From: a virus
IMG/VR virus record: IMGVR_UViG_3300037504_000213
Coordinates: 12,274 to 76,273 of that record
Strand: one strand, 5' to 3'
Length of the DNA stretch: 64,000 nt
Shown here: positions 52,098 through 52,953 of the stretch, in pieces
Layout of the letters: the number at the start of each line of letters is the position of its first letter
How positions within the stretch are numbered: position 1 is the stretch's first letter
Position numbers and translations under genes: made by a program
Notes under the pieces: generated by a model
The model's database searches: none
What the model saw: only the letters and a program-made list of their open reading frames with translations
Told to the model about the DNA's origin: nothing

Positions 52098-52424
52098 TCA
52101 CAGTACCTCCCTGATACGGCGCTTTGCCTCTCGTTCAGACAGGGCGTCATTTTGATAGGACAGAACTATGCTCAGCACCCTGTCTGACCAGTCTTCCTGG
52201 TTATCGTACTGAAAAGGCTTGACCAGATTATAGAGTTGCTCTTCCTTGCTTCGTATCGCTGCGTATTGCGCAACTTCTATGGCACGCCCTTTGTGGTTGG
52301 CGCTACCGATGTTATTTTTCCATGCTGTGGGTCCAAAGACTCTGTGAACAATTGTTCTAAGATCGTCAGTTGTCATGTGGTTGATCATGATGTCAAGCAT
52401 ATCGTTTCTCTTGTTTCGGTTCAT
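52098..52424 (-). CDS. Stand-alone EAD7-like effector-associated domain protein
   Basis: INHMTTDDLRTIVHRVFG..W...IG...KGRAIEVAQYA..R....QLY; start MNRNKR after GGAGG. Confidence 0.55.
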   Translation of the reverse strand: MNRNKRNDMLDIMINHMTTDDLRTIVHRVFGPTAWKNNIGSANHKGRAIEVAQYAAIRSKEEQLYNLVKPFQYDNQEDWSDRVLSIVLSYQNDALSEREAKRRIREVL

Positions 52425-52425
52425 C

Positions 52426-52659
52426 TCATTCCTCCATATACTCATCAAAATCAATATCTGACCGACGCCTTTGGATTGCATCGGCCAATTCTTCCAGAAG
52501 GCCTTGTTGTTCCGCTTTTTGGACCATGTTGGCCCACTTGAGACTCCCAGTGTCCCCTGGGATGTCTTCCCAGGCCCCTGGTCCAAAGATTTCAAATGCC
52601 CACATTTGCATTTCAGACATGTTCAGTCGCTGCCGAATGTTGAGTAATGTTTGCCTCAT
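52426..52659 (-). CDS. Stand-alone EAD7-like effector-associated domain protein
   Basis: LNMSEMQMWAF..G...EDIPGDT...K..NMV...EQQGLLEELADAIQRRR; AAGGAG SD. Confidence 0.6.
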   Translation of the reverse strand: MRQTLLNIRQRLNMSEMQMWAFEIFGPGAWEDIPGDTGSLKWANMVQKAEQQGLLEELADAIQRRRSDIDFDEYMEE

Positions 52660-52953
52660 TTAGTCTGTCTCCTTGTCATTGCTTATGTACCTTACAGAGT
52701 CTCGACCTATAAAGTCTCCAGCAACACTGATCGAACCGCCAAAGAACGGTGCGCCATCTGTGTTGATAACAATATTTGTCAACACTTTCTCTCGGACCTT
52801 TCGGCCCTCCTCATCCTGCGTCATGTCATAGACAATGCCCCTGAAGGCCTCGTTTTCAGACATTTTCAGGATGTTCTTGGCGGCTTCTACACGTTCCTCG
52901 AAGGTGTTATTCTTGGGGTCTCCTAAAATCGTGATATAGTCAATTAGTTTCAT
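52660..52953 (-). CDS. Small protein with C-terminal amyloid-signalling-like motif
   Basis: INTDGAPFFGGSISVAGDFIGRD; GGGAG SD. Confidence 0.6.
   Translation of the reverse strand: MKLIDYITILGDPKNNTFEERVEAAKNILKMSENEAFRGIVYDMTQDEEGRKVREKVLTNIVINTDGAPFFGGSISVAGDFIGRDSVRYISNDKETD

Follow-up and report, generated by a model that had tools for sequence, protein, structure and literature searches.

Three adjacent minus-strand genes of a tailed phage, here called g1, g2 and g3, are best read as effector-less adaptor copies of host immune wiring, which would be used as dominant-negative decoys; this reading, drawn from sequence and fold comparisons, is the best fit, and our judgement leans modestly towards it. 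The genes lie at positions 52098-52953 of the 64,000-nucleotide stretch that was analysed (the window, positions 12,274 to 76,273 of the linear 76-kb IMG/VR virus record IMGVR_UViG_3300037504_000213, whose completeness CheckV puts at ~65%); all phage coordinates are those of the window. As stated in an initial annotation made from the DNA alone, the genes are tightly packed, and the three open reading frames (ORFs) fill this interval exactly. The stop codon of g1 (97 aa, 52660-52953) abuts the ATG of g2 (77 aa, 52426-52659), and a gap of 1 nt separates g2 from g3 (108 aa from the ATG at 52424, 52098-52424). A GGAG-type Shine-Dalgarno (SD) site precedes each of the three starts, that of g1 being GGGAGA.

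g1 carries one copy of a family motif, [IV]NTGGGAY[IV]GG.V.VGGDF[VI]GRD, which extends from I61 to D85 (IVINTDGAPFFGGSISVAGDFIGRD, 52699-52773, minus strand) according to alignments and to a profile built without g1. The motif had been described as the end of g1; it is present, but 12 residues follow it, placing it near the C-terminus and not at it. Against a profile of nine other instances, with g1 left out, g1 scores 35.4 bits (E 3.4e-10 over the 1173 reading frames of the window), the second-best frame of the window scoring 4 bits. When g1 was shuffled 5000 times, the real score was never attained, the top shuffle reaching 9.0. g1 had no match in Pfam, PHROG or PADLOC, the word-index homologue search with g1 recovered g1 itself only, and an extended search with its motif region recovered nothing. 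The label 'RHIM-like' proposed for the motif does not hold, as the G-phi-Q-phi-G core of RHIM/BASS3 is absent from g1, which reads ..FFGGSISVAGDFIGRD.. and has no Gln core. Among ~30 instances of the motif, only g1 and the bacterial protein L055 have a Pro within its first arc. As for the remainder of g1, residues 1-58 (52780-52953) resemble one to two helical hairpins of the HEAT/PBS type (LGDP....R.EAA..L...), and the ESM Atlas model of the protein has HEAT-repeat structural neighbours at low confidence (predicted local distance difference test, pLDDT, 0.56).

The motif family was collected by phmmer over 1.8 billion representatives, which yielded eight matches. The motif proper is found in two of them, P0008 and P0009 (both matched by g1 at a library-wide E of ~2e-4), while the other six (P0003-P0007 and P0010) are FG-GAP_2 propeller proteins. 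P0008, an effector, has two C-terminal motif copies, with a linker between them, after a membrane-like region, and P0009 has a Zn-ribbon and then the motif. The motif alignment was also run against species genomes and metagenomes, which added ~30 instances; their consensus, [IV]NTGGGAY[IV]GG.V.VGGDF[VI]GRDK, coincides with the pattern given in the initial annotation.

The architectures of these loci, assigned with Pfam and our own profiles, place the motif at the N-terminus of NACHT/STAND NTPases and, in pairs of neighbouring genes, behind effectors of the caspase, CHAT and TIR-like kinds, which agrees with the association with NLR/STAND proteins and their effectors that the initial annotation gave. 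A [Peptidase_C14-motif] protein (a C14 caspase) adjoins a [motif-NACHT] sensor in locus L057, and a private VTAGGH variant is common to the two motif copies. A [motif-NACHT-FGE_sulfatase] protein adjoins a [motif-TCAD2-like] protein in L051, a small motif protein adjoins a [motif-STAND] protein in L044, and in L013 a [C14-motif] module adjoins an [EAD7-motif] module to which it is 41% identical over 175 aa. These four loci show the same motif on an NLR N-terminus and on an adjacent effector, while g1 is a lone small protein. The motif was also found as [motif-NACHT] (L014 and L040), as [CHAT-motif] (L035 and L039) and as [TIR-like-motif] (L043, where the TIR match is weak). From these architectures the motif is predicted to couple the components of NLR-type systems. 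Its position is often internal instead of terminal, with a TCAD2-like helical module or an effector-associated domain (EAD) after it; and since in L013 a caspase and an EAD7 protein have the whole 175-aa module in common, the coupling unit may exceed the 25-residue motif. In L012, L013, L051 and L055, more beta segments rich in Gly and Asp follow the motif, along with a TCAD2-like helical module.

The other two genes of the cassette belong to the second type of adaptor: g2 is a stand-alone EAD7-type death-fold domain, and g3 is a diverged EAD7-like domain with the same death-like fold, as had been proposed. The EAD7 domain of g2 comprises residues 8-66 (52462-52638, minus strand). It matches nearly the whole Pfam EAD7 model (PF19960) at E 1.6e-6 and 28.2 bits, the gathering cut-off being 32, and a six-frame search of the record with that model gives 27.4 bits. 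Against an independent EAD7 profile of 18 bacterial domains from Chloroflexota genomes, most of them above the Pfam cut-off, hhalign assigns g2 a probability of 94% (E 1.5e-7 over 55 columns). The AlphaFold2 (AF2) model of g2 has a pLDDT of 91.5, and its top VIA match is the bacterial death-like domain 8ss1 from Azospirillum (root-mean-square deviation 2.9 over 76 of the 77 residues) with a Z of 8.3, in a range (7-8) that is middling for helical domains. More than 40 of the top 50 VIA matches of g2 are CARD, DD, DED or PYD domains, and vFLIP structures are also among its fold matches (Z 5.9-6.5).

In g3 the death-fold part comprises residues 1-75 (52200-52424, minus strand) and is followed by two extra C-terminal helices. 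It aligns with the EAD7 profile in register but weakly (hhalign probability 28%), and its ESM Atlas neighbours, by features as well as by structure, all belong to EAD7/EAD1 clusters. The AF2 model of g3 has a pLDDT of 91.8, and its top VIA matches are CARD and bacterial death-like domains (Z 7.0-7.2). A fold and profile comparison had been suggested in the initial annotation; hhalign and VIA point to EAD7 and the death fold, while Foldseek searches of the PDB and of BFVD gave nothing at E<=0.001. The best BFVD neighbour of g2 is A0A2H4P853, a 63-aa uncharacterised protein of Pseudomonas phage ventosus (probability 0.99, TM 0.62-0.74, E 0.46), which is possibly another small phage death-fold protein.

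g2 (FGPGAWEDI) and g3 (FGPTAWKNNI) are all-helical and have no other domain, so the description of them as helical and effector-free stands; that they are paralogues is plausible, but their pairwise likeness is weak (~20% identity, a BLASTP E of 4e-4 over 27 aa and a phmmer score of 8.6 bits). Both have a two-residue FGPxAW insert, which the 16 bacterial EAD7 domains compared with them lack. A plausible and the simplest origin is a tandem duplication that took place in the lineage of the phage, with paralogy resting on fold, register and insert. A modelled complex of g2 and g3 scored 0.00, which counts neither for nor against, and the word-index homologue search with g2 returned g2 itself only.

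The two types of adaptor meet in bacteria within one polypeptide, in several unrelated proteins. The motif is combined with EAD7 in motif-EAD7 (L038, 61 bits), CHAT-motif-EAD7 (L050, 55 bits), C14-motif-EAD7 (L058, 30.7 bits) and EAD7-motif (L013b) arrangements, with EAD1 in EAD1-motif (L041) and with EAD2 in CHAT-motif-EAD2 (L060). When g2 is compared with 21 bacterial EAD7 domains, its best matches are those of L058 (17.6 bits) and L050 (17.1 bits), the other 19 scoring <=6.9 bits; the best match of g3 among bacterial EAD7 domains is L050 too. Furthermore, a Trp is common to the motif-linked EAD7 domains (DWEDL, NWGGL, DWDSL) and to the phage domains (AWEDI, AWKNN), whereas other EAD7 domains have a Tyr at this point (DYENL). 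Both phage EAD7s thus appear closest, by sequence, to the Trp-bearing subtype that is fused behind [protease-motif]. This subtype match, taken together with the motif-EAD7 fusions, argues that the placing of g1 beside g2 and g3 mirrors a specific host design and is no chance neighbourhood.

The same results bear on a different account, in which g1-g3 are captured or convergent small proteins with a role outside immunity: g2 and g3 would use death-fold oligomerisation in replication or assembly, and the motif of g1 would be just a hairpin of beta-strands or a piece of solenoid, for instance a fragment of an FG-GAP-like blade. By E-value, the best phmmer matches of g1 are indeed the six FG-GAP_2 repeat proteins, with E down to 6e-9, but these values are inflated because they are summed over the five to seven repeats of each protein. 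A reading of g1 as an FG-GAP blade was rejected, the Pfam FG-GAP_2 model (PF14312) being silent on g1 at E<=1 and g1 having a single unit only, with no tandem blades. An N-T..FG/GG..V..GD pattern is common to the FG-GAP_2 repeat (SNTDxxDxFGxSVAxSGDTxVVGA) and to the motif (INTGGGAYIGGxVxVGGDFVGRD); this likeness may have arisen by convergence between short units of beta-strand and turn, or it may reflect distant kinship. A role outside immunity would also accord with the middling VIA scores and with the motif of Ca. Obscuribacter, which is inside a beta-solenoid-like DUF2807 protein. It would leave unaccounted for the 35 bits of g1 on the motif profile, the resemblance of g2 to the motif-linked EAD7 subtype above all others, and the fact that three adjacent genes match two modules co-occurring in single host proteins, which is unlikely by chance. 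We consider such a role quite unlikely.

Some further instances of the motif have contexts of their own. In Ca. Obscuribacter (L003) and its metagenome relatives (L046-L048) the motif lies within a beta-solenoid-like Gly-rich region that is followed by DUF2807 (adhesin head GIN); the motif-bearing protein of L003 has 303 aa, and its context is without NLR or EAD. L034 (the same protein as P0009) and L045 are Zn-ribbon-motif proteins of 89-102 aa on short metagenome contigs with a GC content of 46-52%, and they may be bacterial or viral adaptor-only proteins. In a Chloroflexota metagenome-assembled genome (MAG; JAJRVT010000340.1, L004:5350-5500) the motif, ..VINTGGGAYIGGDVHVGGDFVGRDKMTG, is found in frame right after the stop of a 469-aa EAD1-effector gene, which itself comes after an EAD1-nSTAND1-FGE_sulfatase gene; readthrough of the stop codon, an error of assembly or a tiny separate ORF whose start is not obvious could each account for this arrangement. 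In the same MAG (contig C342, L014:932-1700) a frame change is apparently needed to join [motif-NACHT] to an upstream 218-aa helical ORF, the break being either a MAG frameshift or two overlapping genes. In the genomes sampled, the motif was present in 3 of 401 Chloroflexota and 2 of 301 Cyanobacteriota and EAD7 in 8 of 201 Chloroflexota, so that the initial description of both as common in Chloroflexota was overstated for these samples.

Within the phage, the adaptors are alone. The 76-kb record gave no signal for NACHT, caspase, CHAT or EAD1, in agreement with its predicted adaptor-only state, and the sole NACHT-type signal comes from the P-loop of a DnaC-like loader. The gene concerned (47232-47957, plus strand) encodes a DnaC/IstB-like AAA+ helicase loader with weak NB-ARC and NACHT P-loop matches, and is not an NLR. 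The paired architecture of EAD7, with a core component and an effector, is not seen in the phage either, where both copies stand alone. These observations matter for a second alternative, according to which the cassette is part of a defence or exclusion system borne by the phage itself, with the sensor or effector in the unsequenced part or among the neighbouring genes. The incompleteness of the linear record and the unannotated flanking genes leave room for such a partner, and partners always accompany the motif and EAD7 in bacterial systems. Those bacterial partners are usually adjacent, however, and the adjacent genes here encode 77-125 aa; nor did the cassette or its neighbours have any PADLOC match. 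Pfam and PHROGs scans of the window ORFs, which were not an exhaustive search for an integrase, revealed none, making lysogeny-linked defence cargo less likely. Together with the missing NACHT, caspase, CHAT and EAD1 signals, this makes a phage-borne system very unlikely in our view.

The favoured reading, that g1-g3 act as decoys, supposes the following course of events. In the host, the motif would join NACHT/STAND sensors to caspase, CHAT and TIR-like effectors, and EAD7, EAD1 and EAD2 would recruit further partners. Early in infection, g1 would occupy the motif face that activated NACHT sensors or motif-bearing proteases present, and g2 and g3 would dock on the EAD7 faces of the activated host complex. 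Because g1, g2 and g3 bring no protease or other effector, assembly would be capped or diluted, and abortive-infection death would be blunted. More speculatively, the Pro of the motif might make g1 a terminator of templated stacking: proline substitutions abolish the assembly of BASS11 (10.1101/2024.11.07.622273), and the presence of a Pro in g1 therefore makes a capping role conceivable. In its most specific form the proposal is a two-pronged set, with g1 capping a new NLR-associated templating motif (amyloid-like or beta-solenoid) and g2 and g3 acting as EAD7-only inhibitors, so that the sensor-to-protease step and the protease-to-EAD7-partner step would both be blocked. We put this form forward tentatively and would sooner doubt it than rely on it. 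If true, it would provide the first phage inhibitor of amyloid-type immune signalling, as well as the first EAD-domain decoy, and it would point to a new family of motifs through which NACHT sensors are coupled to caspase/CHAT effectors.

The domain evidence is identical for a third alternative, in which the adaptors are not inhibitors and instead recruit or trigger host proteases or EAD7-linked effectors for the benefit of the phage. The benefits could lie in the timing of cell death or lysis, in the degradation of host proteins or in the exclusion of competing phages, and a CARD-NLR-like system is reported to control lysis for gene transfer agents (PMC13236601). On the other hand, g1-g3 are without a membrane anchor and are located in an early block, away from the lysis genes. 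Free adaptors without a scaffold compete more easily than they activate, and the only phage death-fold protein that has been tested is an inhibitor (PMC10312443). A hijacking of host effectors thus seems to us unlikely, and inhibition by decoys is retained as the better explanation.

Several results weigh against the proposal that g1-g3 are decoys taken from a host. The Pfam score of g2 falls short of the gathering cut-off, g3 has no Pfam match at E<=1, and the AF2 models of both proteins used EAD7 domains as alignment, which may bias them toward the EAD7 fold. Small stand-alone EAD7 or motif proteins are encountered in bacteria too (open frames of 130-165 aa, P0009 and the small protein of L044), and the adaptor-only state is therefore not by itself a viral signature. 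As the record is only ~65% complete, an effector could lie in its missing part. Searched on its own against the 401 Chloroflexota genomes, g2 had no significant relative there, so that, if this is mimicry, the mimicked protein is outside the sample. Finally, the closest cultured phages share <=30% identity with this one in terminase and capsid and are spread over many phyla, and they point to no particular host with cognate systems.

The surroundings of the cassette are those of a phage genome of ~45% GC, identified as that of a tailed phage by a large terminase (11186-12871), a portal (9796-11193) and six tRNAs. g1-g3 lie inside a long leftward run of small unannotated genes, beside a DnaB/DnaC-type replication module on the plus strand (42-48 kb), a position typical of early host-takeover genes. 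On the minus strand, a 125-aa gene upstream (52950-53327) overlaps the start of g1 by 4 nt, and a 77-aa gene downstream (51868-52101, GTG start, SD GGGAGG) overlaps the end of g3 by 4 nt; neither is assigned to a family, with 0 matches in Pfam, PHROG and PADLOC. These overlaps and the abutting of g1-g3 imply one tightly coupled transcription unit, and both flanking genes are probably co-transcribed with the cassette. A promoter-like site is found upstream of the 125-aa gene (53551-53522, minus strand). The strong SD sites suggest a host that uses SD-led translation initiation, and do not point to a phylum. Among the small early genes flanking the cassette there are also an aldo/keto reductase (50406-51320) and a pyrimidine-dimer DNA glycosylase-like protein (55442-55984), both on the minus strand.

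Relatives of the cassette were sought among known phages. A tblastn search of g1, g2 and g3 against 50,697 GenBank phages gave no meaningful match, a blastn search of the region against phages gave nothing, and no relative was confirmed by scans of IMG/VR in which the terminase, g2 and the motif alignment served as queries. A single sequencing run was found to contain the DNA of the phage, a tidal-flat metagenome, which is a possible source; no RNA run was listed for it.

Knowledge of the EAD/STAND/caspase conflict systems of multicellular bacteria comes almost entirely from comparing genomes, and we know of no EAD7-linked system with demonstrated function. Free copies of both coupling modules in a phage would be independent evidence for an anti-phage role of these systems and for their adaptor interfaces as weak points, and g1, g2 and g3 are ready reagents for the study of homotypic coupling and of possible templated assembly. 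Independently of the phage, our survey delineates a motif family outside BASS1-10 whose members connect the N-termini of NACHT proteins with caspase, CHAT, TIR-like and EAD proteins. In the searchable literature we came upon no phage EAD-domain protein, no phage copy of an NLR-associated beta motif and no text with 'GDFVGRD'-type strings. Decoys of animal viruses and one phage CARD-only case are known, so the kind of protein is not new; what appears to be new is the presence of both modules in one phage cassette, matched to host proteins that carry both.

In animal viruses, the herpesvirus proteins M45/vIRA and ICP6 are RHIM decoys, and the vFLIP and pyrin-only proteins of poxviruses and herpesviruses block the assembly of death complexes. 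Like them, g1-g3 are proposed to be viral copies of host homotypic modules. The analogy is functional only: the former are found in eukaryotic viruses, and the I/V-Q-I/V-G core of the RHIM is absent from the g1 motif.

EAD7, or effector-associated domain 7, was described from NTP-dependent conflict systems (Kaur, Burroughs, Iyer & Aravind 2020, PMC7159879; 2021, PMC8195603). In the published model EADs act by homotypic coupling, recruiting partners by like-with-like binding, and they are defined by a pairing, within one genome or operon, of a copy carried by a core component with a second copy carried by an effector (PMC7159879). g2 and g3 share with EAD7 the small, all-helical, non-enzymatic domain, its sequence pattern and register, and the death-like fold. 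In contrast, the bacterial domains are linked to caspase, CHAT and NACHT proteins, whereas the phage copies stand alone, are diverged and have the FGPxAW insert.

For g1, the relevant comparison is with NLR-associated amyloid signalling motifs, which are defined by a sensor N-terminus and a neighbouring effector with the same short motif, and which have CHAT and TIR effectors among their listed partners (Dyrka et al., 10.1101/2020.01.06.895854). The family of g1 likewise has ~25 residues, is rich in G, N, V and I, and is found on an NLR N-terminus and on the adjoining effector. Private variants can be shared by a cognate pair (L057), and the two linker-separated copies of P0008 are reminiscent of HET-s-type pseudorepeats. 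The initial annotation had gone further and named the motif a bacterial amyloid signalling sequence (BASS), a label that we withdraw: in a string comparison, GDFV, GDFI, GGAY and YIGG have 0 occurrences in the curated BASS1-10 files (supplements of PMC8086366), the nearest entries being loosely similar BASS2 variants such as ..GSGTFIGRDNHG... BASS11 of Bab/Agp (10.1101/2024.11.07.622273) is a further motif of this class. No Bell-domain partner was seen with the motif of g1 among the collected loci. Since it is not in BASS1-10, lacks the Gln core and is often internal, we treat it as an unnamed relative by architecture and not as a BASS member.

The closest parallel comes from another phage. 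The CARD-only protein of Acinetobacter phage 133 (141 aa) inhibits the bacterial CARD/gasdermin system (Wein et al., PMC10312443), which corrects the earlier statement that no phage example had been described, at least for death-fold decoys. The same work describes the crystal structure of an Azospirillum CARD-like domain, and we infer that 8ss1 (solved in June 2023), the top match of g2, is that structure. Like g2, a single domain of 77 aa, and g3, which has two helices more, the phage 133 protein is small and consists of nothing but a death-fold adaptor, and g1-g3 would extend the parallel with the CARD-only, pyrin-only, vFLIP and RHIM decoys of animal viruses beyond this single phage case. 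In contrast to phage 133, the domain of g2 and g3 is EAD7 and not the CARD-like domain of gasdermin operons, it is present in two tandem copies, and a third gene, g1, adds a different, beta-type coupling motif; the inhibition that was shown for phage 133 is what we propose here.

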